This document shows positions 4,602 to 43,570 of a DNA stretch of 64,000 bases, one piece after another (within the stretch, counting starts at the first letter, position 1; every line of letters starts with the position of its first letter). The notes under the pieces were generated by a model. The model worked only from the letters and a program-made list of their open reading frames with translations. It did not search any database and was not told where the DNA came from. This DNA is from Clostridia bacterium (GTDB lineage: Bacteria > Bacillota > Clostridia > Oscillospirales > CAG-272), in the NCBI GenBank assembly GCA_017451485.1, contig JAFTOG010000050.1:1380-65379 (forward strand). The letters run 5' to 3'. Position numbers and translations under genes: made by a program.

Positions 4602-4604
4602 GCT

Positions 4605-4715
4605 ATGTGGCAGTACGAAAAGAAATTACAGTATCCCGTTAATATAAAAAATCCCAACCCCAAGTATGCACAGATTATAGTTAGTCAGCTTGGTGGAGCA
4701 GACTGTAAATTATGA
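4605..4715 (+). pseudogene. cotJC: cotJC 5' fragment (codons 1-31, then 5 phage-derived codons and a stop), split by prophage insertion
   Basis: MWQYEKKLQYPVNIKNPNPKYAQIIVSQLGG is the canonical CotJC N-terminus. The reading frame leaves host sequence after 4697 and stops at TGA 4713-4715. Confidence 0.9.
4686..4697. repeat. attL core (CAGCTTGGTGGA)
   Basis: An identical 12-mer occurs at 48940-48951, in the same cotJC codon phase at both sites. Confidence 0.85.
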
Positions 4716-4718
4716 TGA

Positions 4719-12269: not shown

Positions 12270-12415
12270 AAAGAAAATTTAAGGTTACATACAAATCTCC
12301 GTTGGGTTTTCGCTCAACGGAGATAGAGGCTTACTCTAAATATAATGCTAAAAGGATATTCTATGTGCAGTTTCCTAAGTATGAAATCGTCAAGATCGAG
12401 GAGGTACAGGAATGA
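12266..12415 (+). CDS. hypothetical 49-aa protein
   Basis: ATGA/TGA overlaps with both neighbours suggest translational coupling. Below the track cutoff. Confidence 0.4.
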   Translation: MKRKFKVTYKSPLGFRSTEIEAYSKYNAKRIFYVQFPKYEIVKIEEVQE

Positions 12416-13670: not shown

Positions 13671-13969
13671 GCTATATTGAGAGAGAAGCGTTGCTGAAAA
13701 GTCTTGAAAGCAAAAGGCTTATATTTGAGGAAAGTACACCTGTCGATGAAGCTATTGCTGAACAAGTATCGGTATTCGAGGAAACGATTGAGGAAGCCCC
13801 CACCGCCGATGTGGTTGAGGTTTGCCGTTGCGAAATTTGCAAGCATTTAGAAATCCTTAACAGTCGTAATATATATGCAAAATGCAGAATGACCGATTTG
13901 GAATTTAAGCCTTTTGACATAGACACACGAAAGCATTATTGCAGTTACGGCGAAAGGAGAGAGGAATGA
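13667..13969 (+). CDS. hypothetical protein (CxxC...C...C C-terminal part)
   Basis: Coupled to both neighbours. Confidence 0.45.
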   Translation: MSYIEREALLKSLESKRLIFEESTPVDEAIAEQVSVFEETIEEAPTADVVEVCRCEICKHLEILNSRNIYAKCRMTDLEFKPFDIDTRKHYCSYGERREE

Positions 13970-14556
13970 AAGCAGTTTTAATATCAATTCAGCCTAAATA
14001 TTGCGAGCTTATCGCTTTAGGCAAAAAGACGGTTGAGGTTAGAAAGACCAAGCCGAAAATTGATGTGCCTTTTAAGTGCTATATTTATTGCACAAAGGGC
14101 AAGTTTGAGCCTCACGAGCATTTAAGAAACAATTTGCATTATGACGATAGCACAATAAAGGTTTGCGAGGGGCAAGGCAAAGTAATAGGCGAGTTTGTGT
14201 GCGACAGGATAACCGAAATAAAAAGTGATGCTGTTTATTCAAAAGTATTCGGCGGTTTTGATGTTCGCTTTAATTTTGATATTGGAAAGGCTTGTTTAAC
14301 ACAAGAACAAATTATTGAATATTTGGGCGAAAAAACAGGCTACGCTTGGCACATATCCAACCTTGTACTCTATGACAAGCCGAAAGAGTTGGGAGAGTTT
14401 AAGAGGGACTGCAACGGAAATTGCGACAGTTGTAAGTATGCTATATCGAAAAGTCCAATGAAATGGTATGACGAGCCTAAAATAGTCGGTTGTAAGAATA
14501 TATCCGTTCCGCAGAGTTGGTGTTATGTATGGGAGGTAGAAGATGGCAAATTTTAA
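13966..14556 (+). CDS. ASCH (PUA-like) domain protein
   Basis: MKAVLISIQPKYCELIALGKKTVEVRKTKPK is the typical ASCH N-terminus. The ATG at 13966 overlaps the upstream stop. Confidence 0.65.
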   Translation: MKAVLISIQPKYCELIALGKKTVEVRKTKPKIDVPFKCYIYCTKGKFEPHEHLRNNLHYDDSTIKVCEGQGKVIGEFVCDRITEIKSDAVYSKVFGGFDVRFNFDIGKACLTQEQIIEYLGEKTGYAWHISNLVLYDKPKELGEFKRDCNGNCDSCKYAISKSPMKWYDEPKIVGCKNISVPQSWCYVWEVEDGKF

Positions 14557-27999: not shown

Positions 28000-29349
28000 A
28001 TGGCAAATAACTATCTAAAACTCGGATCGCAGGGTGACTATGTTAAGCAAGTTCAAAAAAACCTTAACCTTCGAGGTGGATATGGTCTTGCCGAAGATGG
28101 TATTTTGGGAGAGAAAACCCTGTCCGCTATCAAGGACTATCAAGGTAGGCAAGGACTTGATGTTGATGGAATTGTAGGACCTGAAACATGGAGTCTGCTT
28201 GTGGGTGGTGATAATCCCTTTGATATTGAGTCAACTCAGTCTTCACCTTCCAAGCCACCTTCAAGTAATGGCACATCAAGTAACAATACTGCCAATGGAG
28301 GCTCGTACAATAAAGGATTTTCATATAAAGATTTCTCATACAAGGACTATAAAGAGAGTGAATTAGTATTACAGGCGAAAAAAATGCTTGATGCTCAGTT
28401 ATCACAGAAACCGGGTGCATATCAGTCTCAATGGCAAGGACAATTTGATGAGGTTATGAAACAAATTCTGAATCGTGAGGATTTCTCTTACGATTTCAAC
28501 GCTGATGCACTCTATCAACAGTACAAGGATCAGTATATAAAACAGGGCAAAATGGCTATGCAGGACACAATGGGGCAGGCGGTGGCTATGACAGGCGGCT
28601 ACGGAAACTCCTATGCACAGAGTGTAGGTCAGCAGGTATACAATGCACATCTTGAAAATCTCAATGATGTTATCCCCGAACTTTATCAGATGGCTCTCGA
28701 TAAATACAATATGGAGGGAGACGAACTCTATAATCAGTATGCTATGCTCGGAGACCGTGAAAACCTCGACTATAGCAGATACAGAGACTCTGTTTCCGAT
28801 TGGTTGACCGAAAGAGATTACCTTGCAGGTCGATATGACAGCGAGAGGGACTATGACTATAGCAAGTATGTAAATGACCGTGACTTTGCTTACGGGCAGT
28901 ATGGTGATAACAAAGCCTATGCATATCAAGACTACAGAGATAATATTGCAGATCAGCAGTGGCAGGCACAGTTCGACGAGTCGGTAAGACAGTATAACGA
29001 GCAGATGGCTTTCCAAGAGAAGCAGTACAATGACAGCAAGGCTTCAAGTGGTGGCGGTAGTTCATCAGGAGGCTCAAGTGGAGGCTCTTCGGGAGGCTCG
29101 GGTAGTGGTACTACAGGTAGCGGAAATGGTAACAGCGGAGGTGGATATAAGGCTGTTGATTCCCAAGCAACCAAAAATTTCAAAGCAAGCATTCGCACAC
29201 AAAATGAATTCTATGGCAGATCATCAGCCGAGAAAGAAAAATACAAGACTTATGATGCCTATATTGAAGGCAAACTCGATGAGTGGATGCAACAAGGCAA
29301 GCTGACCGAGGACGAAGTAGCAACACTAATAGCATATTACGGTCTCTAA
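28000..29349 (+). CDS. virion protein with an N-terminal peptidoglycan-binding (PG_binding_1) domain
   Basis: LKLGSQGDYVKQVQKNLN...LAEDGILGEKTLSAIKDYQGRQGLDVDGIVGPETWSLL, then Y/D/Q-rich repeats and a Gly/Ser tract. I recognise no catalytic domain. Confidence 0.65.
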   Translation: MANNYLKLGSQGDYVKQVQKNLNLRGGYGLAEDGILGEKTLSAIKDYQGRQGLDVDGIVGPETWSLLVGGDNPFDIESTQSSPSKPPSSNGTSSNNTANGGSYNKGFSYKDFSYKDYKESELVLQAKKMLDAQLSQKPGAYQSQWQGQFDEVMKQILNREDFSYDFNADALYQQYKDQYIKQGKMAMQDTMGQAVAMTGGYGNSYAQSVGQQVYNAHLENLNDVIPELYQMALDKYNMEGDELYNQYAMLGDRENLDYSRYRDSVSDWLTERDYLAGRYDSERDYDYSKYVNDRDFAYGQYGDNKAYAYQDYRDNIADQQWQAQFDESVRQYNEQMAFQEKQYNDSKASSGGGSSSGGSSGGSSGGSGSGTTGSGNGNSGGGYKAVDSQATKNFKASIRTQNEFYGRSSAEKEKYKTYDAYIEGKLDEWMQQGKLTEDEVATLIAYYGL

Positions 29350-29364
29350 AAGGAGGATAACATA

Positions 29365-32300
29365 ATGGCAAGTGTAGCCGAAATTAAAAAGCGACTTAAA
29401 GAGCAAGGCATTACAGGAGAAGTAGGACAGGCAAGCAGACACTATAACAGGAATAGCAATACTTCAAGCGAAAAGAAGAGTAGCGGTTATGTAGGTAGCA
29501 GTCAATACCAAAAGATAAAAGAAAAAGTAAAAAAAGGCGGTATTTCTTTTGATGAGCTTGGTGTAGACCAAGACTACATCAATTCCTACATTAACGATAC
29601 AAATACCTTCTTAAGTACAGCACAGGATGATATTAATGGTGTTGGGTGGGGGAATGCATCATCCACATATGAATCAAAGAATAACACATATATGGACCTC
29701 CACAGAAAGTCGAGTAATATCCGTACTTGGCTGAATGCAAACAAGAGTAACCTTGATGAAGAAACATACAATAACCTTATAGATTCTTTGGAAAAAGCTC
29801 AAAGCAGCTTGTCTTCTGTAAATAAAGCTTTTGAAGAGACTAAAGCCTTTTACTCTCAGTTTGAAACCGAGAATGACTACAATAATTATGTTCAATATGG
29901 GGAATTGAGCCGATATGATGTAAACGCAGGTCAACAGGAACTTGATATTCTTAATGGTCTCGCAAATGAAGTAGATGATTACAACAAAAAAGCCATTTCT
30001 TACGGTTATCTCGCTATCACTCCCGAAGAAAAAAAGAGAATGGAGGAGATAGATAAGGTTCTCAAAGAAAAGGGATATGAAGACGGTGCAGATGGTCTAA
30101 AGGGAGTTATATCAGAGAAATCGGCTTATCATAACCGAGCTAAGCAGATACAGGATGGTATAGCACTCTCCTCTGCAATTAACAATCCCGATTTCGAACA
30201 TTATTCTCAGGCAGGAGCAAATGTAAGTAATCCGTCTTGGGAAGACCACAAAGCTCCTGTAAACATCTTCGGATGGACTCCAATGGGAGAGGGCGAGGAA
30301 ATTGGGAATATGGTAACATTCGCTGAGGCTAATAAAGACACTGTTAATACAGATGCAGTATTAAGTTGGTCGTTGGCAAAAGGTATTGACCCGGAATCTA
30401 CATCTTATCAGTTATCGTTAATTAATAGGTATATGAAAGATGACGAAAAGGCTATATATAACTATTATATCGGTAAGGGTGACAAGGAAAGTGCAGATGC
30501 ATATATGTCATATATGATAGATGTCCTTGTGCAGAGAGAAGCAGGAGAATATGCGAATAAATTTGATGATACATATATGGAATGGGTAGTCTCAGGCACC
30601 GCAGGAGTTCATAATTTTGCATCGGGTATGTCAAACTTCTTTAATGGACTTACTCGTCAAGAAATCGACCCTAAATCGTCCCTTGCGTATTCACACGAAC
30701 TAATGAATAGCAATAACGAAGGAATATGGAAGATAACAAATGACCTTACATTTACTACTACCAATATGTTACCTTCTATACTGTTAAGCTTTGTTCCTGT
30801 AGCCGGTCCTGTACTTGGTACAACATCTATGGGAATATCAGCGGCAGGTAATGGCTATGCAGAAATGAAAAGACTTGGATATAGCGATGACCAAGCAAAA
30901 GCATACGGAACTCTCGTGGGATTATCAGAAGCAGGTCTTCAGACCCTTCTCGGTGGTATCAGTAAGCTTGGAGGCAAGATATCGGGCAAGGCTGTGGGCA
31001 ACTTAGTAAGCAAATTTGACAATGCTATTGCAAGAACTGCCATTAAGATTGGTGGCAATATGGTTGCAGAGGGAGCTGAAGAGGGTATTCAAACAGTGCT
31101 TGAGCCTGCATTTAAGGCTCTTGTTACAGGCGAGGACTACGAAGCTCCTGAGTGGGAAGAAGTCTTTTATTCATCACTCCTCGGTATGTTGTCAGGAGGT
31201 GTGTTTGAAGGAGGTCCTACTGTTGTAGATACTGCTGTTCAATCTCATCAGACAAGCAAGCAATACGGAAATTTCGCATCAGACATCGTAACAGAATTAA
31301 TTGAGCTTGACCCTAATAATTCACTCGCACAGAAAATGAAGGCAAGGCTCGACAGTGGTAAGAAAGTATCGGGATATCAATTAAACCGTCTTATAGATGC
31401 GAATGAGAGTGCTATGTACAAGCAGGATGTCTCTAAGATTAAATCTGCTACAGAGTCAAGACTTGCACAGCTTGGAGAACAGGGTGATGTAAGCAGACTT
31501 GCAGAAGCCATTGCGAAACATATTTCGGGCGAGGAACTTACACGATCCGAAATAAATATTATCAAAAACAGTAAATTCGGTCAGAGAGTTATCAACGAGC
31601 TTACCCCTTCTAATATTAAGTCAGGAGAATACTCAAGTGCTTGGGCAGAAGTAATCGGTACGGATAGGATAAATTCCGAGGAATACAGCAGGCTAATTGC
31701 AGACTTGGATGATGTACAAAATGAAGATTTTGACACAAAGACGGTTGATAATGCCACTGTGAAGACACAGAATGTTAAATCAGCCACAGAAATAATTTCC
31801 GAGACCGAGAATACACCTGTAGAAGAAAGTGCTGAAAATGGCGGTTTACAGGCTTCTAAAACTGCTATAGAAAATGTATCAGAGGAAGAAAAAAGCACAG
31901 TAACACTTGCAGAGGCTTCCCGAAAGTACGGAGCACAGGCACAGGCTATGATACATACTTATATCGAGGGACAGGATGCATACGAATACGACTCGGCTTA
32001 CAAGGTTGCATTTGATATGGGTAAAAGCGGAGTTTCCCTCTCCTATGCTTTAGAGAGTGAGGCTACTTCTTACCTATCGGAGAATCAAAGAAAACTCGCC
32101 TATGAAGCAGGAAAAGCGGCAGCGGATACATTAGCACAAAAGCGTGAAGCGGCGAACAAGAAAGCAGTTAATGGTAAGACAGGACGTAGAAAAGGTACTG
32201 TTAAGGGAGAGGGCGTAACTATTTCCGACCTTAAAAAGAGCTTCAATGATACTCAGAACAGGGCATATAAGATACTTTCCACTATTGCTGAGGTAACAGG

Positions 32301-35300
32301 TATTGATATTGTGCTGTATAAATCTGAGGTGAATGCAGACGGTAAGTTTGAAGGTGCTCAGGGTAGATTCAAATGGTCTGACGATAAAATCTACATTGAC
32401 ATAAATGCAGGTCTAAAGTCAGAAAACAGCGTGAATAATCTTGCAAAATACGCTATGCTTCGCAGTTTTTCCCACGAATTTACACATTTTATTGAAAAAT
32501 GGAATCCAATTTATTATAATGAGTTTAGAAAAGTAGTGTTTGACACACTTACAGATCGTGGCGAAAACGTACACAAGCTGATTATTGAAAAAATGGAGAA
32601 GATGGGTCTCGACTCCGAAGCCGAAGTAGAGGAAAAAAGAAGAAAGTACTATGACAGGGCAAGCCGTGAGGTTGTTGCTGAGGCTATGACCGATATTCTT
32701 CCTGATTCTCACTTCGTGGAAACTCTTGCAACAAAGCATAAGAATATCTTTGAAAAGTTACTTGATATGTTGAAGGAATTTCTTGCTGATATCAAGGCAT
32801 ATTTCAACACTATCACACATAACCCTTCAAGAGAGGCAAATACACTCAAGGAGCAGGTCGGAGAGACTGTGCATTATGTGGAAAACATTGTGAAGCTATT
32901 TGACAATGTTGCAGTAGAGGCTGTGGAAAACTATCAGATGACTGTTGCCATTGATGAAGTTGCAGAAAAACCTGCAAAGATTATCAACACAGTGACAAAA
33001 TCTGCTGAGAAAAGTGCAGATTCCAATAAATCATTGTATGAGAAATACAACGAAATAAAGGAAAGCTATCCCGATAATATCATTCTTTATAGGGTAGGAG
33101 ATTTCTTTGAGGTCCTTGGAGAAGATGCGAAAACTGTAGCAGATATACTTGACGTAACTTTGACAGGAAGAAACGATCCTAAACACGGACGTATTGATAT
33201 GTGCGGATTTCCTTATCATATCATTGAAAAGTATGTTGATAAGCTCCGCAAGAGCCACGATGTGGTGCTTGTAGATGTTGATGCAAAGGGAGAAGTGAAG
33301 GTTTATCCTATGGCTTCTATAAAAAATACTAACGGAGGTATTACAAATGTCCAAGAACGAGGCGAACAAAAAGCCGACAACACACGAGGAAGTAATTCAG
33401 CAGTTGAAGGAACACAAGAAACTGCTGGAGACAGATCCCGAGTACAGGAAACAGTACGAGGAAAGGAAGAAAAGTTTAGAGAAGTTCAACCTCTTCAACG
33501 ACAGCATAGAGGACTAAATGATAATCAATGGCTTTTAGACTCAAATAATTATATTGTTCCTGCACAAGACTCTGATTTGCACAAGGCACAGAAAACTCTT
33601 ACCGAAGATTACGGCATTGAATGTCATATCGTTAATAAATCTGCGTGGAAGAGAAATGCTAAGGCAACAACTTATTATGGAAAAGTCTACATTAGTGAAG
33701 ATATAGACGAACACAATCTTCGTGCTGTTCCTTTTCACGAAGCAACACACGCTATAAAACAGCGTGGCTTTAAGCCGTATTTGGATTTCATTGAGCGTAC
33801 TCCTGAAATGATAAATATGTCATCCCAAGAAGCACGAGATTTGATGGATGTTGTTTTGGAACACCTTGGATATAATAGTCTTGATATGGATGAACAGCAG
33901 AGAATTCGTTTTTATGATGAATTAAATGCATCTGTTTATGGTTTGACAGTTAGCGGAATTATTTTTGATAATGCTGAAATAGAATGGATTACAGATGCTT
34001 TTAACGACTTCACTGCTTATGCAAACGAGTTTACGGACATACACAATCAATTCAAAGCAAACAATAAACAGGAGGTAAAACCTAATGTCGAAAATGTTGA
34101 TAACAGAGACACAGTACAACAGCCTAACACCAATAGGCAGGGAGATACACAAGTATTGGAAGGACTTCAAACCCAAGATGTACAAGGAGATGTACAAAGA
34201 GGGGACACTGTGGGAGACACTGTCGAGCGAGGACAAGAGGTTGGACGAGATGATGCTGTCTCTGTTAACGGAGCAGGGACTCGCAGAGGACCAAGCGAGG
34301 GAGATAGTCAGAGCGGAGATATACGACGAAATGATGAGCTAAGTCCCGAAGCTGCTGAAAAACTCCACGAGGAAGTAACGGTACAGATTTCACAGCAGTC
34401 AACAGAAAAGCCCAAGGGCAGAAACTTTGTAATCGGTGATACTCTTGACCTTCCGAATGGAGAAAAGGCAAGATATAAGGCTAATATCGAAGCCATAAAG
34501 CTCGTAAAAACGCTTGAATCCGAGGGCAGATATGCAACAGAGCAGGAGCAGGCTATTCTCTCAAAATACGTAGGTTGGGGCGGTCTTGCTAATGCCTTTG
34601 ACGAAAGAAAGGCAGATTGGAGCAAGGAATTTAAGGAGCTTAAAGAACTTCTTACCAAGGAAGAGTACGAACTTGCAAGAGGCTCTACGCTTAATGCTCA
34701 CTATACAGAGATTTCCGTTATCAAGGCTATGTATGAGGGTCTTAATAAGCTCGGCTTTAACGGTGGGCGTATGTTAGAGCCTTCTTCGGGTGTTGGTAAC
34801 TTTGTCGGGGCTATGCCTTCTGATATGAGTGCAAAGGTAAAGAGTTGGACTATGGTAGAGCTTGACGGTATCACAGGACTGATCGCAAAATACCTCTATC
34901 CCAATGCCGATGTAAGAATACAAGGTTTTGAAAAAGCAAATATCCCCAATAACTTTATGGATGTAATTATCAGTAATGTTCCTTTTGGTAACTATCCCAT
35001 TACCGACAAGGCATATCCTAAGAAGGTAACGAGTGCTATTCATAACTATTTCTTTGCAAAGTCTCTTGATAAAGTCCGCCCGGGTGGAATCGTGATGTTT
35101 ATCACATCCTCATACACTATGAATAGTAAGGACGAGACCGTAAGAAGATACATTATGCAGAGAGCAGACCTTCTCGGAGCTATCAGACTTCCCGACACAG
35201 CCTTTAAGGGTAATGCGGGAACTGAGGTTGTTACAGATATTCTCATCCTTAAAAAGAGACCTGCAAATACAGCCTATACAGGTGAGGAATTCCTTGAAGC

Positions 35301-38300
35301 CCCTTACAAATATATAAACGGCTACAACGGAGCATATATCAACAGTTATTTCAATACTCATCCCGAAATGGTACTTGGTACTGCTTCTATGGATGGCAGT
35401 ATGTACCGTGGAGCTTCGCTGACATATAAAGCTCTTGAGGGTAAGGGAAGCCTTGCAGACCAAATCCGGGAAGCCTTTAGCCACATTAAAGGTAAAATGG
35501 ATTATCCTGCACGGTTGAGTCCCGAAAAGACCAATTTTGCAGTAGAGAGAGCAGGTAAGAATACCAAACAGGACGGCTACGTAGCAAAGAACGGAAAAAT
35601 ATATCAGAATAAAGACGGAGAACTTGTAGAGCAGACTGTTACTCCCAAGGTTGCAGAACGAATCAAGGGAATGCTTGAAATTCGTGATGCGGCCAAAGCA
35701 CTTACGAATGCTCAGCAACAGGGACTCAAGGATACCGAAATAAAGAAGGCAAGAGCAAATCTTAATAAGCTTTATGATGCTTTCGTAAAGAAAAACGGTT
35801 TCCTCAATGCTCCTGCAAATAGAAGTGCATTTAACGGAGATCCGGACAGATATTCTGTATTCGCTCTTGAAAATTGGGATAACGATAAGAAAACAGCAAC
35901 TAAGTCGGATATATTCTCCAAGAATACAATAGTTCCAAATCGTACTGTTAATTCTGCGAAGAACGTAGCAGAAGGACTTATTGTATCTGTAAACCAAACA
36001 GGCGGTGTAGATGTTTCTCTTATCGCAAGGCTGACAGGCAAGACCGAAGCCGATGTAACAAGAGAACTGCTTGACTCAAGACAGGTTTTCAAAAACAGAA
36101 ACGGTGTGCTTGAGACCGCAGAGACTTATCTTTCGGGTAATGTAAGAGCTAAGCTCCGTGATGCAGAGGCTCTTGTACCTATGGATAGCGACTATCAGAA
36201 GAACATTGAAGCACTTAAGGCAGTAATGCCCGAGGATGTTTCTTATCAAGATATTTTTGTCAACCCGGGTACACCTTGGATTCCTTCAAGTGTATATTCA
36301 GACTTTGCCGCATATATGCTTGGTGGAAGAAATACCGAATACAGACAGGATATAGATGTTACAAGAAATCCCGATACAGGTAATTTTACGGTAGAGCTTA
36401 AGAGTTCTTACTTAAAGTATAATGCCTCAAATACTCAGAAGTGGGGTACTCCTCGCCGTTCATTCATAGACTTGTTTGATGCTATGCTTAACTCTAAGAG
36501 CGTAGTAGTTAAGGACAAGCTTGACGATGGCTCGTTTGTAATAAACAAAGATGCAACTGCAGCCGCTAATGAGAAGATAGAGAATATCACAAAGGAATTT
36601 CAAGAGTGGCTATGGAAAGATGAAGCTCGCAGGACGGAGCTTGCTAAACTCTACAATGAGACATTTAACTCTATTGTAACTCCTAAGTATAACGGAGATA
36701 ATCTTACCGTGAACGGTGCAAATGCTATGAAGCCTTTGAGACCTCATCAGAGGAATGCTGTACAGCGAGTTATTTCTTCAGGCGGTAATACGCTTCTTGC
36801 ACATAAGGTTGGTGCAGGTAAGACCTACGAAATGGCGGCGGCAGCTATGAAGCTCAAGGAACTTGGACTTGTTAAAAAGCCTTTGTTCGCTGTTCCTAAG
36901 TCTCTTGTGGCTCAATGGGGTACAGAATTTATAGACTTCTTCCCAACTGCAAAATTGCTTGTAGCAGAAGCTACCGACTTTAGCACTGCTAACCGTAAGG
37001 TATTTATGAATCGTATTGCCAACGGAGATTATGATGCGGTTATCGTTTCATATGAGCAGTTTGAAAAGCTCCCTGTTTCTGATGATTTCACAAGAGAACT
37101 TTATCAGGAGCAGATAAATAGCGTTATTGCGGCTATCGAGGAAGCCAAAGCGGAGAAAGGAGCTAAGGCTCTTTCCGTTAAGGACCTTGAAAAGAAGCGT
37201 AAATCCTTGCAGGCGAAGATAGACAAACTGACCGACAAGGCAAAGGACGAGGGTAATATAGACTTTGAGGAATTGGGTGTAGACTCTCTCTTTATAGATG
37301 AGGCACATAACTTCAAGAATCTGTTCTATACTACCTCTATGACTAATGTATCAGGTCTTGGAAATAAGGACGGCTCAAAGAGAGCGTTTGACCTTTATAC
37401 AAAGGTACGCTATCTCCAAAAGCTGAATGGCGGTAAGGGAATTGTATTCGCTACGGCTACACCTGTTATGAACTCTATGTCAGAAATGTACATAATGCAG
37501 AAATATCTGCAACCCGACCTTCTTGAACAGCTTGGACTTAATACCTTCGATGCGTGGGCGAAGCAGTTCGGAGAGGTTGTCAACGGTGTAGAAATAAAAC
37601 CGAGTGGACAAGGCTACCGTGTAAAGCAAAGTTTCTCAAGATTCAAAAATATGAGTGAATTGCAACTATTATTCCGCAACTTTGCAGATGTTCTGACCGA
37701 CATCCCCGGACTAAAGATTCCGAAGATGAAGGGTGGAGCAGTAAATGTAGTAGTATGTGAGCCGGGACAGTTCCAACAGGATTATATGAAGGAGCTTGAA
37801 AAGAGAGCCGACAATATAAAGAATGTTGACCCTTCGGTTGATAATATGTTGAAAATCACTTCTGACGGTAGAAAAATATCCTATACTCAGCGTATGATAG
37901 ACCCCACTCTCCCTTATGAGGAAGGATGTAAAATATATCGTTGTGCTGGAAATGTAGTAAAAGCCTACAAAGAAAGCAAGGATATTAAGGGTACACAGCT
38001 TATATTCTGTGATATGGCAACACCAAAAGGCAAGAGTAAGACAGAGACTTCTACCGAAACAGACGATGCTTCAATGGATATGGAGAGTGCAAAGCTCTAT
38101 GATGATATTAAGGCTCGTCTTATACAGGAGGGCATACCTGCAAAAGAAATAGCTTTTATCCACGAAGCAGACACCGACCAAAAGAAAAAGAAGCTTTTTG
38201 CCGATGTAAACGAAGGTAAGGTAAGAGTATTGATAGGCTCTACAGGTAAAATGGGTGTAGGTATGAACGCACAAAAGCGTGTTGTTGCTATACATCACCT

Positions 38301-41300
38301 TGATGCACCTTGGAGACCGGGAGATGTTGAACAAAGAAACGGTAGAGCTTTCAGACAGGGTAATATCAATGAAGAAGTAGAGTGCTTTACATATGTTACC
38401 GAGGGAAGCTTTGACGCACGTCTTTGGGATATTCTTGAGAGAAAGCAGAACTTTATAAATCAAGTAATGAACGGCGAGAGCGTTGGACGTGAGACCGAGG
38501 ACACAGGAGAGGTTACACTTTCTGCCGCCGAGGTTAAGGCTCTTGCATCAGGCAGTCCTCTTATTATGGAGCAGGTACAGCTTGACACCGATATAAAGAA
38601 GCTTGAGTCTCTGTATAGGGCACACCTTTCCGCAGTCAGAGCCGCAAAGGAAAGGCTTGAAAAGGACAAGGGCAATACTGAGCTTCTTGAAAGACTTATC
38701 GAATTGGGTAAATCCGATATACAGTCTACAAAGGACACATACTCCGAGGGTAAATTCTCAATTACCGTTGGTAAGCAGAAGTTTACAGAAAAGAAGGATG
38801 CAGGCGTAGCTCTTATGGCAGAGGCAACAGCTAAAGCCAACACCACCGATTATACCTCTATAGGAAGTTTCGCAGGCTTTGATGTGCGTGTGATAAAAAC
38901 TGCCGAGGGTATTAAGGGTATTATCTCAGGTAAGCAAGGCTATCCTTTCAACACATATCCTAACAATACCACATTTATGATAAATCATATGATTTCGGTT
39001 GTAGAAGGTATAACCGAGAAAGTGAAGATGTGGGAAAGCTCCCTTGCGGAAACAAGGAAGGATATGGCTGAACAGGAGAAGCTTATAAATGCTCCTTTCT
39101 CAAAGCAGGCAGAGCTTGACGAGAAGCGTAAGCGTTACACCGAGGTTATGGAGATACTGAATCCTAAAGAGGAGCAGTCCCTTGACTCCGTGGCTGAGGA
39201 TACAGTACAGGAACAGAGCAGAGCATACTTGGAAGATGAACTTGACGATTTCGATATCAACAGTTATCCAAAAGTCAAGATGAGTGCCACCGAGTATAAT
39301 AAACTTGTATCCGAGGCAATGACTTGGAATGCCAACAAGACTAATAGAATATTGCATCATAGCCTTAATGGATACACTTATGTATATACCATTGATGAAT
39401 CTTATAACATAACAGTTTATAAGAAGTATAAATCAGTAAACATTCACGAAAGGAAGGCAAAAATATATGATATCCGTAGCGGAAAGCAAGTTAATAGAAA
39501 CGATGGTGAGAATCGGGATGGAAGACGAAATGATACATTTAGTCTGCTCGAATCTGACCGAGGAACAGATGATAGAAGCGGAGGACTTTTTGACTCATCG
39601 ACATCAGAAAAATGGTCAAGTGACGGAAGAAGAGGTACTGAAACTCCTATTGATAATGACGAAAGAGGAACACAATACCAACAGCGTTCAGAAGGACTAA
39701 CGGACTATGAAGTGCTTGAATTGGCTTCAAATGAAATCAAGGTAAGCGACCTTACACAGGCTGAAAATGATGCCTTGACTATCTTCCAAGACAGACTTGC
39801 AAGGTTGAAAACCCTTCAGGACGAGAGGACCGAGCAGGGCAGACTGTATAAAGAACAACAGTTTGGAGCAAAGGTCAACAGAGCTGAAGCTGAAAAGACA
39901 CTTAACCGTATGCACGTTCTTGACGATCAGATAAAGAAAGCTACAGCAGATGTACTGACTGTAGAGGAAAAAGAGGTATTAAAGCGAGTGCTTAAAAAGG
40001 CTCGTAAGGTTGTAGAGGTACAGGAGAGAAAGCACGGACAAGAAATTCTTAACCGTTGGAGAGACCGTAGAAATAATGCGGCCGCTATCAAGAAGTACCG
40101 TGACCGCCTCCGTGGAGACGTGGAAGAGCTTACAACTTGGATTACAAGTCCGAATAACAAGGATATTACAAAGCACGTTCCTGATGTACTTAAGAATTCA
40201 GTTATTCCTTTCCTCTCAAGCATTAACTTTATGAGTAAGCGTTCTCTTAAAGGTGGAGATGCAACTGTATCCGATAAAGCATTTATAAAGAACTTAGATG
40301 CATTAAAATCTGCACTTAAGATAAATATGGATGTTTACGGTATGTACTCAGGTTATAACGATTTGCCTCCTGACTTTATGGAGAATTTAGAGAACTTCAT
40401 AAAATCTGCACAGGCACTTGTTGATAAGAGTGCAGGCGAGTTTATCATAAATCAGATGACAAGCTCAGAACTGAAGGAATTATCACAGGTAGTGCGTACT
40501 CTTAAGAAGTACATAACTCAATTTAACCGATTCCACAACAATGCTATGTATCAGCATGTTTACGAGGCAGGAGACAATTCAATGGAATTCCTTAAAGAAC
40601 TCGGAAATGCAGGAGAGCATACAGGAGGATTATCCAACTTTGTATTTTGGCAACAGATAAGACCTGCCTACGCATTTGAGAGATTTGGTAAAGGTGGCGA
40701 GGCTATCTATGACGGACTCAGACAAGGACAGGCGAAGCTTGCCTTCAATACAAAGGAAATTCAGAGATTTACGGAAAAAGCATATACAAGCAAAGAGGTC
40801 AAAGCGTGGGAAAATGAAATTAAGGAATTTAACCTCGGCAGAGATATTGTGAGAATTCCTGTTTCATACCTTATGTCTTTCTATGAGTTGTCAAAAGACC
40901 CCCAAGCAAAAGAGCATATTGTTGGCGAGGGTATCAGAGTAGCAACATATACACACAAGGGCAAAAAGATTTCCGATGTTGGACACATTCTCACAGTTGG
41001 AGAGTTTAACCAGATAGTTAGCTCGCTTACAGACAGACAGAGAGAAGTTGCTGATAGCTTGCAGAAATTTATGGCAGAGCAGGGTGGTAAATGGGGTAAC
41101 TATGTTTCAGTTGCACGTTTCGGAGAGGAACTTTTTACAAATCCAAATTACTTCCCGATTAATTCTGACGGTAGACATTTGTCTTCTACAGTAGAAGAAC
41201 ATCCCTCTGCGGCTTCACTATATGCACTGCTTAATATGAGCTTCACAAAGTCGAGAAAAGAGGGTGCAAATAACCGTATTATCCTTTACAGCATATTTGA

Positions 41301-43488
41301 TGTATTCGCTAATCATATGGCAAGTATGGCTCAGTACAACGCTATGGCACTTCCTATACTTGATGCTCTTAAATGGTTTAACTATCAGCAGGTACTTATA
41401 GATGATGAGGGCAACAAGATAGTTCTCGGTAATTTAAGAGATCAGTTGTCAAGAGTTTACGGCGTACCCGATGAAACAAAACCGGGAAGCGGTAAGCAAG
41501 GATATGCAGAGACCTTTATTGTTAATATCATAAAGGCATTCAATGGTACTGCGGCACAGGGCACTCCATATGACACATTAGGTCTTAAGTCACTACGCAG
41601 ATACAATATGGCACAGGTTGCATATAACCTTCGTGTTGTAATTCAGCAGCCTTTAGCAATTACACGAGCAGGTATGCTTATTAGCTATAAGTCCATTATC
41701 AGAGGAATGAAGCTAAGACCTTCTGCAATCAAGAAGAATATCGAGGAAATGCAGAAGTATAGCGGTATTGCGGCTTGGAAATCTCTCGGCTTCTATGATG
41801 TAAATATCTCAAGAGGACTTACCCACCTTATCAAGCACGATTCAACAGTGTGGGATAAGATAGGTGATATAGGAATGTGGGGAGCTGAAAAGGCTGATAC
41901 TCTGACTTGGGCGGCTATTTGGAGTGCTTGTAAGGAAGAAGTTATAGCAAAGCAGAAGTTAACTCCCGAAAGTGACGGCTTCTATGAGGCTGTAACCAAG
42001 CTCTTTGAGGATGTTATCTATAAGACACAGGTTGTCGATAGTGTACTTACCAAAAACGAGTTTATGAGGGACAAGGGAACATTTGCAAGACTTGTAGGAT
42101 CGTTTATGTCAGAGCCTACAACAAATGCAAGTATGCTGATAGATGCTATTGATAAATATCACCTTGACATTAAGAGAGGTATGTCAAAGCGTGAGGCTTG
42201 GCAGAAGAATGGCAAGATGATAGGTCGCAGACTTTATGTATACGGCGTTGGTGCTGTTCTTCTTGCAGCAGTACAAGCCGTGGCAGATGCCTTCAGAGAT
42301 GATGACGAGTATGAGGAGTGGTACGAGAAATGGCTCGAGGCATTCGGAGGCAATGTTATTGACGAGCTTATGCCCTTTAATAAGCTTCCTATTATGTCTG
42401 ATTTTTATGACCTTGGAAAAGAGATAGCTTCAATCTTGGGAGCTGACACTTACGGTAATCCTCCGCAGTCTGTATTTATGCAGTGGTATGACAGCCTTAT
42501 AAAGGGTACAGAGATTATACACGATAAGATTACAGGCGAGGACACAAATTATACTTGGTGGGGCGGCATTTTCAAATTGGTACAGGCAGCTTCAGGTATG
42601 ACAGGACTGCCTATGGCATCAGCTACAAGAGAGTTTGTTACATTTTGGAATAATGTTATAGTAGCTATGGTACCGAGTTGGAAAATAGAAAGCTATGAGC
42701 CAAGCGAACTTGCACAGATAAGATATGCATACGAGGACGGATATCTGACTTATGAGGAGGCTGTAGAGCTTCTTATCGAGCAAGGTCTTGTCGATAACGA
42801 AAATGAAGCATACTTTATCATTGAAGGATGGGAAGCAGGCGAAGGATATTCAAGGTACGATAAGATTTACGATGCAGTTCTCAAGGGCGAAAGTATTGAC
42901 GAGGCAATGTCGGAATTGACTGCTCACGGATATACCGAAAAGGAAGTGCTGAGACAAGTCAAGAGTAAGATCGGAGAATGGTATCAGAATGGTGAAATCT
43001 CAAAGGCACAGGCTATAAATATGCTCAAAAAGTACAGTGATATGGATGATGACGAGATAACCGCTACAGTTAATAAATGGAGTAGTTATGTTGTTACAGG
43101 CATTAAGTATGATGATATAGACGATGAGTTTATGGAGGGCAACATCACATCTTCAAGAGCCATTGAAATGTATGTACGCTACGGTAGTATGACAAGAGAA
43201 AAAGCCACTGAAAAGGTTACGGTATTGGAATTTGTTAAGGAACATCCCGGAACAGAGGGTATTACTTACTCTGCTGTTAACGGCTACAATACCTATTGTG
43301 AGCCTTATGGTGTACCAGCTGAAATATATTACGAGGCGTGGGTATATAAGAATACGCTTTCGGGCACAGTCAAAGAGCCGATGATGGATTATATCAATTC
43401 CCTTAACCTGAGCACAAGACAAAAAGATAGTTTGTACTTCGCTTTTGGTTGGGCAGAAAGTAAGCTTTACGAAGCACCGTGGCATTAA
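29365..43488 (+). CDS. giant 4707-aa polyvalent virion/ejection-type protein
   Basis: A single uninterrupted ORF with SD AAAGGAGG. Carries the modules listed below as sub-features. Confidence 0.8.
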   Translation: MASVAEIKKRLKEQGITGEVGQASRHYNRNSNTSSEKKSSGYVGSSQYQKIKEKVKKGGISFDELGVDQDYINSYINDTNTFLSTAQDDINGVGWGNASSTYESKNNTYMDLHRKSSNIRTWLNANKSNLDEETYNNLIDSLEKAQSSLSSVNKAFEETKAFYSQFETENDYNNYVQYGELSRYDVNAGQQELDILNGLANEVDDYNKKAISYGYLAITPEEKKRMEEIDKVLKEKGYEDGADGLKGVISEKSAYHNRAKQIQDGIALSSAINNPDFEHYSQAGANVSNPSWEDHKAPVNIFGWTPMGEGEEIGNMVTFAEANKDTVNTDAVLSWSLAKGIDPESTSYQLSLINRYMKDDEKAIYNYYIGKGDKESADAYMSYMIDVLVQREAGEYANKFDDTYMEWVVSGTAGVHNFASGMSNFFNGLTRQEIDPKSSLAYSHELMNSNNEGIWKITNDLTFTTTNMLPSILLSFVPVAGPVLGTTSMGISAAGNGYAEMKRLGYSDDQAKAYGTLVGLSEAGLQTLLGGISKLGGKISGKAVGNLVSKFDNAIARTAIKIGGNMVAEGAEEGIQTVLEPAFKALVTGEDYEAPEWEEVFYSSLLGMLSGGVFEGGPTVVDTAVQSHQTSKQYGNFASDIVTELIELDPNNSLAQKMKARLDSGKKVSGYQLNRLIDANESAMYKQDVSKIKSATESRLAQLGEQGDVSRLAEAIAKHISGEELTRSEINIIKNSKFGQRVINELTPSNIKSGEYSSAWAEVIGTDRINSEEYSRLIADLDDVQNEDFDTKTVDNATVKTQNVKSATEIISETENTPVEESAENGGLQASKTAIENVSEEEKSTVTLAEASRKYGAQAQAMIHTYIEGQDAYEYDSAYKVAFDMGKSGVSLSYALESEATSYLSENQRKLAYEAGKAAADTLAQKREAANKKAVNGKTGRRKGTVKGEGVTISDLKKSFNDTQNRAYKILSTIAEVTGIDIVLYKSEVNADGKFEGAQGRFKWSDDKIYIDINAGLKSENSVNNLAKYAMLRSFSHEFTHFIEKWNPIYYNEFRKVVFDTLTDRGENVHKLIIEKMEKMGLDSEAEVEEKRRKYYDRASREVVAEAMTDILPDSHFVETLATKHKNIFEKLLDMLKEFLADIKAYFNTITHNPSREANTLKEQVGETVHYVENIVKLFDNVAVEAVENYQMTVAIDEVAEKPAKIINTVTKSAEKSADSNKSLYEKYNEIKESYPDNIILYRVGDFFEVLGEDAKTVADILDVTLTGRNDPKHGRIDMCGFPYHIIEKYVDKLRKSHDVVLVDVDAKGEVKVYPMASIKNTNGGITNVQERGEQKADNTRGSNSAVEGTQETAGDRSRVQETVRGKEEKFREVQPLQRQHRGLNDNQWLLDSNNYIVPAQDSDLHKAQKTLTEDYGIECHIVNKSAWKRNAKATTYYGKVYISEDIDEHNLRAVPFHEATHAIKQRGFKPYLDFIERTPEMINMSSQEARDLMDVVLEHLGYNSLDMDEQQRIRFYDELNASVYGLTVSGIIFDNAEIEWITDAFNDFTAYANEFTDIHNQFKANNKQEVKPNVENVDNRDTVQQPNTNRQGDTQVLEGLQTQDVQGDVQRGDTVGDTVERGQEVGRDDAVSVNGAGTRRGPSEGDSQSGDIRRNDELSPEAAEKLHEEVTVQISQQSTEKPKGRNFVIGDTLDLPNGEKARYKANIEAIKLVKTLESEGRYATEQEQAILSKYVGWGGLANAFDERKADWSKEFKELKELLTKEEYELARGSTLNAHYTEISVIKAMYEGLNKLGFNGGRMLEPSSGVGNFVGAMPSDMSAKVKSWTMVELDGITGLIAKYLYPNADVRIQGFEKANIPNNFMDVIISNVPFGNYPITDKAYPKKVTSAIHNYFFAKSLDKVRPGGIVMFITSSYTMNSKDETVRRYIMQRADLLGAIRLPDTAFKGNAGTEVVTDILILKKRPANTAYTGEEFLEAPYKYINGYNGAYINSYFNTHPEMVLGTASMDGSMYRGASLTYKALEGKGSLADQIREAFSHIKGKMDYPARLSPEKTNFAVERAGKNTKQDGYVAKNGKIYQNKDGELVEQTVTPKVAERIKGMLEIRDAAKALTNAQQQGLKDTEIKKARANLNKLYDAFVKKNGFLNAPANRSAFNGDPDRYSVFALENWDNDKKTATKSDIFSKNTIVPNRTVNSAKNVAEGLIVSVNQTGGVDVSLIARLTGKTEADVTRELLDSRQVFKNRNGVLETAETYLSGNVRAKLRDAEALVPMDSDYQKNIEALKAVMPEDVSYQDIFVNPGTPWIPSSVYSDFAAYMLGGRNTEYRQDIDVTRNPDTGNFTVELKSSYLKYNASNTQKWGTPRRSFIDLFDAMLNSKSVVVKDKLDDGSFVINKDATAAANEKIENITKEFQEWLWKDEARRTELAKLYNETFNSIVTPKYNGDNLTVNGANAMKPLRPHQRNAVQRVISSGGNTLLAHKVGAGKTYEMAAAAMKLKELGLVKKPLFAVPKSLVAQWGTEFIDFFPTAKLLVAEATDFSTANRKVFMNRIANGDYDAVIVSYEQFEKLPVSDDFTRELYQEQINSVIAAIEEAKAEKGAKALSVKDLEKKRKSLQAKIDKLTDKAKDEGNIDFEELGVDSLFIDEAHNFKNLFYTTSMTNVSGLGNKDGSKRAFDLYTKVRYLQKLNGGKGIVFATATPVMNSMSEMYIMQKYLQPDLLEQLGLNTFDAWAKQFGEVVNGVEIKPSGQGYRVKQSFSRFKNMSELQLLFRNFADVLTDIPGLKIPKMKGGAVNVVVCEPGQFQQDYMKELEKRADNIKNVDPSVDNMLKITSDGRKISYTQRMIDPTLPYEEGCKIYRCAGNVVKAYKESKDIKGTQLIFCDMATPKGKSKTETSTETDDASMDMESAKLYDDIKARLIQEGIPAKEIAFIHEADTDQKKKKLFADVNEGKVRVLIGSTGKMGVGMNAQKRVVAIHHLDAPWRPGDVEQRNGRAFRQGNINEEVECFTYVTEGSFDARLWDILERKQNFINQVMNGESVGRETEDTGEVTLSAAEVKALASGSPLIMEQVQLDTDIKKLESLYRAHLSAVRAAKERLEKDKGNTELLERLIELGKSDIQSTKDTYSEGKFSITVGKQKFTEKKDAGVALMAEATAKANTTDYTSIGSFAGFDVRVIKTAEGIKGIISGKQGYPFNTYPNNTTFMINHMISVVEGITEKVKMWESSLAETRKDMAEQEKLINAPFSKQAELDEKRKRYTEVMEILNPKEEQSLDSVAEDTVQEQSRAYLEDELDDFDINSYPKVKMSATEYNKLVSEAMTWNANKTNRILHHSLNGYTYVYTIDESYNITVYKKYKSVNIHERKAKIYDIRSGKQVNRNDGENRDGRRNDTFSLLESDRGTDDRSGGLFDSSTSEKWSSDGRRGTETPIDNDERGTQYQQRSEGLTDYEVLELASNEIKVSDLTQAENDALTIFQDRLARLKTLQDERTEQGRLYKEQQFGAKVNRAEAEKTLNRMHVLDDQIKKATADVLTVEEKEVLKRVLKKARKVVEVQERKHGQEILNRWRDRRNNAAAIKKYRDRLRGDVEELTTWITSPNNKDITKHVPDVLKNSVIPFLSSINFMSKRSLKGGDATVSDKAFIKNLDALKSALKINMDVYGMYSGYNDLPPDFMENLENFIKSAQALVDKSAGEFIINQMTSSELKELSQVVRTLKKYITQFNRFHNNAMYQHVYEAGDNSMEFLKELGNAGEHTGGLSNFVFWQQIRPAYAFERFGKGGEAIYDGLRQGQAKLAFNTKEIQRFTEKAYTSKEVKAWENEIKEFNLGRDIVRIPVSYLMSFYELSKDPQAKEHIVGEGIRVATYTHKGKKISDVGHILTVGEFNQIVSSLTDRQREVADSLQKFMAEQGGKWGNYVSVARFGEELFTNPNYFPINSDGRHLSSTVEEHPSAASLYALLNMSFTKSRKEGANNRIILYSIFDVFANHMASMAQYNAMALPILDALKWFNYQQVLIDDEGNKIVLGNLRDQLSRVYGVPDETKPGSGKQGYAETFIVNIIKAFNGTAAQGTPYDTLGLKSLRRYNMAQVAYNLRVVIQQPLAITRAGMLISYKSIIRGMKLRPSAIKKNIEEMQKYSGIAAWKSLGFYDVNISRGLTHLIKHDSTVWDKIGDIGMWGAEKADTLTWAAIWSACKEEVIAKQKLTPESDGFYEAVTKLFEDVIYKTQVVDSVLTKNEFMRDKGTFARLVGSFMSEPTTNASMLIDAIDKYHLDIKRGMSKREAWQKNGKMIGRRLYVYGVGAVLLAAVQAVADAFRDDDEYEEWYEKWLEAFGGNVIDELMPFNKLPIMSDFYDLGKEIASILGADTYGNPPQSVFMQWYDSLIKGTEIIHDKITGEDTNYTWWGGIFKLVQAASGMTGLPMASATREFVTFWNNVIVAMVPSWKIESYEPSELAQIRYAYEDGYLTYEEAVELLIEQGLVDNENEAYFIIEGWEAGEGYSRYDKIYDAVLKGESIDEAMSELTAHGYTEKEVLRQVKSKIGEWYQNGEISKAQAINMLKKYSDMDDDEITATVNKWSSYVVTGIKYDDIDDEFMEGNITSSRAIEMYVRYGSMTREKATEKVTVLEFVKEHPGTEGITYSAVNGYNTYCEPYGVPAEIYYEAWVYKNTLSGTVKEPMMDYINSLNLSTRQKDSLYFAFGWAESKLYEAPWH
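30745..31215 (+). other. Gly/Ala-rich hydrophobic segment of the giant protein (membrane-interacting candidate)
   Basis: MLPSILLSFVPVAGPVLGTTSMGISAAGNG...LLGGISKLGG...IKIGGNMVAEG...LLGMLSGGVF. Confidence 0.5.
32473..32487 (+). other. HExxH motif 1 (HEFTH, aa 1037-1041) in a zincin-like module
   Basis: LRSFSHEFTHFIEKWNP. Confidence 0.55.
33031..33312 (+). other. MutS domain-I-like module (aa ~1223-1316)
   Basis: YPDNIILYRVGDFFEVLGEDAKTVADILDVTLTGR...DMCGFPYHIIEKYVDKLRKSHDVVLVD parallels the E. coli MutS N-terminus ILLFYRMGDFYELFYDDAK..LDISLTKR...PMAGIPYH..ENYLAKLV..G..VAI. Confidence 0.75.
33347..33517 (+). CDS. nested +1-frame ORF n1 (56 aa) with its own SD inside the giant ORF
   Basis: GGAGGT at 33334-33339 lies 7 nt before the ATG. 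Product: MSKNEANKKPTTHEEVIQQLKEHKKLLETDPEYRKQYEERKKSLEKFNLFNDSIED. Confidence 0.35.
   Translation: MSKNEANKKPTTHEEVIQQLKEHKKLLETDPEYRKQYEERKKSLEKFNLFNDSIED
33736..33750 (+). other. HExxH motif 2 (HEATH, aa 1458-1462) in a second zincin-like module
   Basis: LRAVPFHEATHAIKQRGF. Confidence 0.55.
34085..34342 (+). CDS. nested +1-frame ORF n2 (85 aa), TnpV-like, with its own SD inside the giant ORF
   Basis: AGGAGGT at 34070-34076 lies 8 nt before the ATG, with an in-frame TAA at 34076-34078. The product carries a PIG..H.Y.K..P..Y....G.L...L ... AREIVRAEIY signature. Confidence 0.5.
   Translation: MSKMLITETQYNSLTPIGREIHKYWKDFKPKMYKEMYKEGTLWETLSSEDKRLDEMMLSLLTEQGLAEDQAREIVRAEIYDEMMS
34560..35260 (+). 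other. N6-adenine DNA methyltransferase module
   Basis: YVGWGG, motif I MLEPSSGVGNF, and motif IV VIISNVPFGNY. Confidence 0.8.
36736..38470 (+). other. SNF2/DEAD-like helicase module
   Basis: LRPHQRNAV, Walker A HKVGAGKTYE, DEAH box LFIDEAHNF (37297-37308), and motif VI QRNGRAFRQGN. Confidence 0.85.
39467..39700 (+). CDS. nested +1-frame ORF n3 (77 aa) with an SD-like AAAGGAAGG inside the giant ORF
   Basis: MISVAESKLIETMVRIGMEDEMIHLVCSNLTEEQMIEAEDFLTHRHQKNGQVTEEEVLKLLLIMTKEE... The main frame here is D/R/G-rich filler. Confidence 0.4.
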   Translation: MISVAESKLIETMVRIGMEDEMIHLVCSNLTEEQMIEAEDFLTHRHQKNGQVTEEEVLKLLLIMTKEEHNTNSVQKD

Positions 43489-43503: not shown

Positions 43504-43530
43504 GGGGTGGGTGTAAAACCCACCCCTTTT
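43504..43530 (+). terminator. strong intrinsic terminator after the giant gene
   Basis: 9-bp GC stem GGGGTGGGT/ACCCACCCC, 5-nt loop, then TTTT. Confidence 0.75.
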
Positions 43531-43570
43531 AATGTTACCATTTATACAAGATTTACAGGAGGAAAAACGA

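Follow-up and report, generated by a model that had tools for sequence, protein, structure and literature searches.

A single gene of 4707 codons takes up 31.9% of a 44,254-bp prophage in the 64,000-nucleotide (nt) stretch of Clostridia bacterium contig JAFTOG010000050.1 analyzed here (the window, to which all coordinates refer), in keeping with the share of about a third given in a preliminary description of this DNA. Our analysis indicates that the gene probably encodes a polyvalent effector carrier of a temperate short-tailed phage, packaged in the virion and ejected into the host, in which a fixed chassis carries exchangeable cargo. This reading rests on the gene being a fixed member of the virion operon across the phage lineage, and on the cargo found in the family (RNases, ADP-ribosyltransferases and antirestriction dyads), which only makes sense in a newly infected cell. 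It is also favored because the same methylase-helicase dyad is virion-borne in phage P1 and in gp69 of phage JC1, and because gp50 of phage N4 has the same layout and is ejected. Packaging, ejection, cleavage and antirestriction are what we infer from these relationships.

An uninterrupted giant reading frame

The gene runs for 4707 codons with no internal stop in the window sequence, from an ATG at 29365 to a TAA at 43486-43488. The junction with the upstream gene is tight: 15 nt, which include a strong ribosome-binding signal, lie between its stop codon and the giant-gene ATG.

29350-29356, plus strand: Shine-Dalgarno sequence AAGGAGG, strong, 8 nt ahead of the giant-gene ATG (sequence)
29365-43488, plus strand: giant polyvalent gene, 4707 codons plus stop (open reading frame; same protein in NCBI nr)

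That this is one uninterrupted open reading frame (ORF), as had been described, is borne out by an identical 4707-amino-acid (aa) protein in NCBI nr and by the relatives of the gene. Our comparison set consisted of 84 loci (L001-L084) encoding a relative of the C-terminal region, five from metagenome-assembled genomes and 79 from IMG/VR viral contigs. In all 84, which come from independent assemblies, the giant ORF is unbroken and ends in the same C-terminal module, with lengths from 1855 to more than 4600 aa, many of them lower bounds set by the 10-kb flank. Since every related locus carries an uninterrupted giant ORF, the giant frame is the normal state in this phage lineage. Neither within the gene nor near it did promoter-like and terminator-like sites exceed their frequency in shuffled sequence.

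Aligned with its relatives, the protein divides into an N-module, a variable middle and a C-module. The N-module comprises a Gly/Ala-rich hydrophobic segment, a helical part and a first zincin-like module (zincin 1). In the middle part of the window protein, the cassettes are set apart by three long linkers rich in R, G, D, E and Q. The motif coordinates given earlier for HEFTH, the MutS-I stretch (aa 1223-1316), HEATH, the methylase and the helicase were all reproduced, and the full domain map is as follows.

29365-30534, plus strand: aa 1-390, coiled, low-complexity, poorly conserved N-terminal part (found in 4 of 84 loci)
30562-31284, plus strand: aa 400-640, conserved Gly/Ala-rich hydrophobic segment of the N-module, strongest helix aa 468-490 (alignment)
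31282-31764, plus strand: aa 640-800, conserved helical part of the N-module (alignment; AlphaFold model, AF2, predicted local distance difference test, pLDDT, 82-94)
31912-32964, plus strand: aa 850-1200, zincin-like module 1, HEFTH at 32473-32487 (aa 1037) (conserved motif, AF2 topology)
33004-33312, plus strand: aa 1214-1316, MutS domain I with GDFFE (Pfam, PDB, NCBIfam)
33313-33531, plus strand: aa 1317-1389, linker 1, R/G/E/Q-rich, low-complexity (sequence)
33532-34044, plus strand: aa 1390-1560, zincin-like module 2, HEATH at 33736-33750 (aa 1458) (conserved motif)
34045-34431, plus strand: aa 1561-1689, linker 2, R/G/D/Q-rich, low-complexity (sequence; weak repeat with linker 3)
34432-35424, plus strand: aa 1690-2020, helical GWGG domain and gamma-class N6-adenine methylase with EPSSGVGNF and NVPF (motifs, Pfam, PHROG)
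35425-36684, plus strand: aa 2021-2440, inter-domain region of the DarB-like dyad (PHROG 10089 and 11801; co-inherited with the dyad)
36685-38484, plus strand: aa 2441-3040, SNF2-type helicase with GAGKT, DEAH and QRNGRAFRQGN (Pfam, PDB, NCBIfam)
38485-39444, plus strand: aa 3041-3360, post-helicase part of the DarB-like cassette (PHROG; comparison of loci)
39445-39672, plus strand: aa 3361-3436, linker 3, R/G/D-rich, low-complexity (sequence)
39673-43485, plus strand: aa 3437-4707, conserved all-alpha C-module (alignment, AlphaFold model)

A fixed chassis with exchangeable cargo

In addition to the 84 loci, we compared 128 long database representatives obtained by an exhaustive search; relatives were selected by the C-module, so that all of them contain it, and aa 640-1210 served as the query for N-module homologs. 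Ordinary homolog searches returned matches of at most ~2100 aa (at most ~1000 aa in a second search), many of which start at internal methionines, and in the exhaustive library the same family spans 2000-4860 aa. Length and architecture statistics taken from an ordinary homolog search would thus be misleading for giant proteins.

The preliminary description left a C-terminal region of ~1250 aa unassigned. The region matches no Pfam or PDB entry. It is the most conserved part of the protein and defines a very large family, with 3804 clusters (50% identity) at E ≤1e-3, of which 2724 remain when the threshold is set to E ≤1e-30. The C-module always lies at the C-terminus, in proteins of 2000-4860 aa. 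Its AlphaFold model is nearly all helical (pLDDT 77.7; predicted template-modeling score, pTM, 0.63), and the alignment contains many invariant polar residues and a hydrophobic helix (aa 4292-4310) followed by an invariant RDDD; the N-module likewise has one strongly hydrophobic helix. A Pfam search with 400-aa tiles and E values up to 10 gave no family for the C-module and no credible family for the N-module, the zincins or the linkers, and alignment profiles of both modules against PDB sequences returned low-complexity noise only. By Foldseek, with E down to 1e-43, the C-module corresponds to the C-terminal pieces of many metagenomic phage proteins, which are named only by their other domains (MuF-C, 'nuclease', PolyVal ART, LPD). 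The sole tblastn match to the C-module was an unannotated 4.8-kb fecal contig, and megablast of the giant gene against cultured and deposited phages gave no match.

The C-module begins at a junction motif, YQQR[ST]xxL[TS]D[RY]E (39673-39710, aa 3437-3449, and the equivalent point in L001-L084), ahead of which different phages have unrelated sequences. This makes the motif a candidate processing or recombination boundary. Among relatives, the distance from zincin 1 to the C-module varies from ~215 aa to ~2500 aa, and the middle can hold Strawberry-notch (Sno)-type helicases, PBECR3 or PBECR5 RNases, ART-PolyVal, LPD3, RadC or a C5 methylase as alternative cargo. The front and back of the protein are therefore fixed and the middle is exchanged, which is a chassis-and-cargo pattern. 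A search for DNA repeats inside the gene that could mediate cassette exchange found none, apart from a weak 33-nt similarity between linkers 2 and 3.

One relative has a small insert, ...FGSIEISFDGKPSETVRNALKENKFRWHKQKQVWYG..., at the position of MutS-I (locus L004, ~3100-3700; ORF aa ~1040-1230), and we take this insert to resemble a short domain common at the start of large conjugative methylase-helicase proteins. Because L004 carries a different insert where the window protein has MutS-I, the comparison suggests a cassette slot directly after zincin 1.

A description of the fixed N- and C-terminal chassis, or of the C-module, was not found in the literature examined, which includes part of the polyvalent-protein survey discussed below; the C-module may be an LPD that never reached Pfam. 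We tentatively propose, as a possibility, that the N- and C-modules form an unnamed, widespread protein-delivery chassis of short-tailed phages of Gram-positive gut bacteria. Between its fixed ends, nearly any effector amounting to 0.2-2.5 kb-equivalents of protein could be inserted, and a built-in zincin might free the cargo at the junction and linkers after ejection.

MutS-I and methylase-helicase cassettes

One of the cassettes in the middle region is MutS domain I, and the homology proposed for it earlier is confirmed by profile searches. The Pfam family MutS_I (PF01624) matches aa 1225-1296 with an E of 2.7e-18 and 66.7 bits against a cut-off of 20.6, and MutS chains in the PDB match with an E of 4e-14. 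The alignment covers residues 3-90 of E. coli MutS and keeps the Phe-x-Glu mismatch-recognition motif (GDFFE versus GDFYE), and the NCBIfam MutS equivalogs match over their first ~80 residues only. This cassette is rare in the family, being present in one of the 84 loci and two of the 128 long representatives (1-2%), always straight after zincin 1.

The methylase-helicase dyad is more frequent (18 of 84 loci and 19 of 128 long representatives, about 15-20%). PHROG 10089, 'DarB-like antirestriction', matches aa 1561-3561 with 1620 bits, and the SNF2 helicase named in the preliminary description is confirmed by the Pfam families SNF2-rel_dom, ResIII and Helicase_C, all above their cut-offs. The motifs are MLEPSSGVGNF (aa 1803) and SNVPFGNY (aa 1880) in the methylase and GAGKT (aa 2483), DEAH (aa 2645) and QRNGRAFRQGN (aa 2989) in the helicase. 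Ahead of the methylase, a GWGG at ~aa 1738 fits LPD36 by position and motif (GxGU), which gives the order LPD36-like domain, N6-adenine methylase and SWI2/SNF2-type helicase of a DarB-like dyad. Searches of the giant protein with Pfam and PHROG gave no match to an RNA polymerase family.

Zincin-like modules

Two HExxH modules lie in the protein, and both appear to be zincin-like on the strength of this motif and, for module 1, of a predicted topology. In module 1, the H, E and H of the motif are invariant in 35 of 35 homologs. Its model (AlphaFold, pLDDT 76.8) has the order helix, three strands, HExxH helix, helix, which in prediction matches the zincin core described by Iyer et al. (PMC5512222). 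Zincin 1 is found in 61 of the 84 loci and 101 of the 128 long representatives. Module 2 is weakly similar to module 1 and much rarer (7 of 84 loci), and its HExxH, together with a downstream YDE(L/T/V)N, is kept in the seven relatives whose alignment spans the motif.

Position in the virion module

The late genes of the prophage follow the order TerL, P22-type portal, major capsid protein, PHROG-511 'internal virion protein', PHROG-372 tail protein, peptidoglycan (PG)-binding protein, giant protein and BppU_N fiber, and an amidase endolysin gene comes after the fiber gene. The order from the major capsid protein through the PG-binding protein, giant protein and fiber is kept across related viral contigs. 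A placement between a PG-binding protein and a fiber gene, as described previously, is thus seen in the window and in related loci. The immediate neighbors of the giant gene are as follows.

28000-29349, plus strand: upstream partner, 449 aa, with an N-terminal PG_binding_1 domain (profile search)
43504-43530, plus strand: GC-rich hairpin GGGGTGGG, 7-nt loop, CCCACCCC, then TTTT (sequence)
43532-45409, plus strand: downstream fiber or receptor-binding gene, BppU_N (profile search)

In 61 related loci the giant gene is preceded by a PG-binding gene, and directly so where the gene order is visible. In the 449-aa protein of the window, ~380 aa beyond PG_binding_1 have no assignment and no hydrolase domain was detected, and we regard the protein as a candidate wall-penetration partner. 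The hairpin sits in the 43-nt gap between the stop of the giant gene and the fiber ATG at 43532, which comes right after the T run, and it may be an attenuating terminator or an mRNA-stabilizing structure.

The preliminary description placed the giant gene in a tape-measure position. This does not hold, as the P22-type portal marks a podovirus-like module, in which the gene occupies the place of the internal-virion or ejection proteins of T7- and P22-type phages. No tape measure is to be expected, because the structural module is podovirus-like and has no tube or tape-measure gene: profile searches of the prophage proteins detected no tube, sheath or tape-measure family in it. The giant protein itself gave no match to a tape-measure profile in Pfam or PHROG, and we rejected the tape-measure reading on these grounds.

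Relation to known giant and polyvalent proteins

Polyvalent proteins of phages and conjugative elements were described by Iyer, Burroughs, Anand, de Souza and Aravind in 2017 (PMC5512222). The proteins of that survey resemble the giant protein in joining many unrelated domains in one polypeptide beside virion late genes, and in containing an LPD36-methylase-SWI2/SNF2 module and MutS-I; their zincin-like domains have a putative counterpart in its HExxH modules. The zincin peptidase is presented there as a hub domain and likely processing enzyme of polyvalent proteins, and the unit made of LPD36, an adenine methylase and SWI2/SNF2 ranks third in frequency among their elements. The window protein combines at least two disparate activities and is encoded by a phage among late and virion genes. 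Its multiple disparate domains and late-gene context agree with the earlier assignment to this class, of which the gene is a further example, and its existence is unsurprising to a specialist. The preliminary description had found no obvious precedent for MutS-I in such a protein. This was incorrect, given that section 27 of the survey already lists MutS-I among the DNA-binding domains of these proteins, with Firmicutes and Bacteroidetes as sources (PMC5512222). We also rejected, as already published, the idea of a first MutS-I outside MutS. As ~80% of the described MutS-I domains occur together with ArdC-N (PMC5512222), a phage-type protein that has MutS-I and lacks ArdC-N is slightly unusual. 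The window protein differs further from the described proteins in that its N- and C-modules match no LPD or other Pfam family, and the chassis-and-cargo organization does not appear in the portion of the survey used here.

The comparison with DarB of phage P1 made in the preliminary description is well founded, since the two proteins have the same dyad (PHROG 10089) and tblastn aligns it to P1 darB at ~29% identity over 45% of the dyad. P1 DarB is a virion-associated protein of 2255 aa that guards the entering DNA in cis against type I restriction; P1 is a myovirus, and packaging of DarB needs DarA, Hdf and DdrA. In contrast, the window dyad is embedded in 4707 aa with N- and C-modules of its own, and no Dar partners were seen with it.

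Closer in size are the giant DarB-like proteins that fill a fifth of the genome in the temperate podoviruses Bcep22, BcepIL02, DC1, JC1 and Parlo. BcepIL02 gp70 has 4667 aa, and JC1 gp69 has 4515 aa and makes up 22% of its genome (both phages Bcep22-type, Lessievirus). For gp69 of JC1, a Burkholderia podovirus, mass spectrometry of purified particles gave 51 unique peptides, and virion presence is also known for the Bcep22 giant. These proteins resemble the window protein in belonging to temperate podoviruses, in a giant gene that ends the virion module and in its share of a fifth to a third of the genome, and the dyads of these and other podovirus giants are 33-38% identical to the window dyad over 97% of its length (tblastn). 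Only the dyad is common to both, however, and the Bcep22-type giants carry a lytic transglycosylase and serve phages of Gram-negative hosts.

A similar overall layout is found in N4 gp50, the virion RNA polymerase of the Schitoviridae, a podovirus protein of more than 3000 aa that is present in ~4 copies per capsid and is ejected through the tail. In this structurally solved protein, an N-domain that inserts into membranes is followed by 100 aa of low-complexity linker, the enzyme in the center and a large C-domain. According to a published proposal, it threads the ~35 Å tail channel like beads on a string and then stays anchored in the membrane. The Gly/Ala-rich hydrophobic stretches of the two proteins are compositionally alike, although this is not a significant match, and the window protein differs in having no RNA polymerase domain. 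The ejection proteins of T7 (gp14-16) and P22 (gp7, gp16 and gp20) agree with it in gene position, between tail and fiber genes, and Foldseek of both modeled modules gave no PDB match with E <0.2.

Within gut Clostridia, the ~41-kb podovirus-like prophages phi1 and phi4 of Clostridium clostridioforme LM41 release particles spontaneously and have an 8-kb 'polyvalent-like' ORF at the 3' end, ~20% of the genome, with LPD3-type similarity (PMC11318856). Compared by description, they resemble the window prophage in being podovirus-like prophages of gut Clostridia with one oversized ORF, and these ORFs likely share the chassis. They differ in the smaller size of the ORF and in that no methylase-helicase or MutS-I is reported for them (PMC11318856).

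Proposed mechanism and alternative explanations

By analogy with N4 virion RNA polymerase, the chassis would act as the terminal domains of that protein do, in capsid incorporation, tail passage and anchoring in the host membrane: the N-module may insert in or associate with the membrane, and the C-module may serve capsid incorporation or core formation. The cargo (MutS-I, zincin 2 and the DarB-type dyad) would then enter the cell with the DNA. There, the translocase-methylase could move along the phage DNA as it enters and shield it in cis against restriction, in the manner of P1 DarB, and MutS-I might help to bind DNA that is distorted or mismatched. Cleavage of the polyprotein at its long R/G/D-rich linkers would fall to the zincins, the first of which looks catalytically intact.

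Several observations weigh against this mechanism. No similarity could be detected between the chassis and known ejection proteins, N4 gp50, BcepIL02 gp70 or PDB entries. Foldseek of the C-module and N-module models against the PDB reached a best E of 0.25, and hhalign of the chassis against BcepIL02 gp70 gave a probability <1%, while neither terminal domain of gp50 gave a significant match by hhalign or BLASTP, the hhalign templates being in both cases single sequences of limited sensitivity. The presence in virions of this protein, or of any member of the chassis family, is a deduction. The N6-adenine methylase named in the preliminary description is supported by its motifs and by PHROG 10089, but its sole Pfam match, Eco57I, lies below the cut-off (21.0 versus 25.3 bits), and its motif IV is NVPF, not NPPY/F. 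The two zincin-like modules proposed there are supported by the conserved HExxH and by the predicted topology of module 1, but neither is recognized by Pfam, NCBIfam or PDB profiles. In addition, a Pfam search of the giant protein found no ArdC-N, the companion of MutS-I in ~80% of described cases. Finally, in two other assemblies (ENA), which match the window at a protein identity of 99.9% or more, a frameshift splits the giant gene in two pieces, through a 1-nt deletion near nt 39330 in the first and a ~20-nt deletion near nt 40925 in the second. The two sites differ from each other and neither is a homopolymer, and the frameshifts reflect either the independent inactivation, in resident prophages, of a gene that presents a very large target for mutation, or faulty assembly.

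The N- and C-modules could instead have a mainly structural role, as an internal core and then a channel across the thick Gram-positive wall and membrane, with the enzymes as optional passengers. T7 gp14-16 and P22 gp7, gp16 and gp20 do this job in their phages. This explanation overlaps with the effector carrier, and the difference lies in which role is essential. It draws support from a chassis that is universal and a cargo that is dispensable, some relatives having only ~215-230 aa between zincin 1 and the C-module, from hydrophobic helices in both modules, and from a gene position that is the same as that of the T7 and P22 ejection genes, beside a PG-binding protein, in a module where no other ejection candidate of comparable size is visible. 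Nevertheless, we consider it unlikely, as neither fold nor sequence resembles any solved ejection protein, there is only one strongly hydrophobic helix per module, and frameshifts in two close relatives are not what one would expect of a gene needed for infectivity, unless the prophages concerned are defective.

It is more doubtful still that the protein stays out of the virion, as a late cytoplasmic methylase-helicase that modifies progeny DNA ahead of packaging or a prophage factor directed against superinfecting elements. Methylase-SNF2 pairs do occur outside virion contexts, a hairpin separates the giant gene from the fiber gene, and captured polyvalent proteins may act against incoming elements, as suggested by Iyer et al. 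(PMC5512222). However, the gene is tightly coupled to virion genes in a conserved slot among them, the homologous dyads of P1 and JC1 are virion-borne, and the same chassis also carries RNases and ADP-ribosyltransferases, which are sensible only if delivered to a new host. We give very little credence to the explanation that the intact 14-kb frame is non-functional, either a decaying gene of a defective prophage or an assembly product. The two broken copies in near-identical assemblies point this way, whereas the copy in the window retains an intact frame in which the catalytic motifs are conserved, the 84 independent relatives have intact giant ORFs, and the prophage is equipped with complete att sites and with integrase, replication, packaging, head, tail and lysis genes.

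The gene has experimentally supported cousins in P1 DarB and the Bcep22 and JC1 giants, and the useful part of our comparison is the family pattern, in which a prophage lineage of gut Clostridia spends one third of its coding capacity on a single protein. The C-module comprises thousands of clusters and has neither a Pfam family nor a relative of solved structure. The family offers a handle on how a podovirus packages proteins of >500 kDa and passes them through its tail into Gram-positive cells, and on which counter-defense activities gut phages carry. If the proposal of a delivery chassis is true, nature would have provided a modular system by which large proteins are injected into Gram-positive cells by way of a phage tail. 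The prophages phi1 and phi4 of C. clostridioforme LM41 seem to offer a culturable relative, which makes the idea testable.

Prophage and insertion site

The prophage is short-tailed (podovirus-type), complete-looking and temperate, and resides in an uncultured spore-forming member of the Clostridia. It is bounded by a 12-bp direct repeat, the att core CAGCTTGGTGGA, which occurs only at 4686 and 48940 (4686-4697 and 48940-48951); two copies of this 12-mer were reached in none of 100 shuffles. A large serine recombinase gene adjoins attL, and the early genes encode CI/Cro-type regulators, YqaJ/RecT and a replisome organizer. The insertion, visible in the regions 3979-6194 and 48919-49455, splits the spore-coat gene cotJC, with cotJA, cotJB and the first ~32 codons of cotJC on the left flank and the Mn-catalase-type rest of cotJC on the right. 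Exact excision at the 12-bp repeat would rebuild an intact cotJC. This recalls intervening elements of sporulation genes, such as SPbeta in spsM and skin in sigK, and raises the possibility of an excision timed to sporulation. The early region also contains a gene at 12412-13308 with a weak Radical_SAM match (E 8e-4, below the cut-off), and an ASCH-domain gene lies at 13939-14556; both are possible accessories of DNA or RNA modification.

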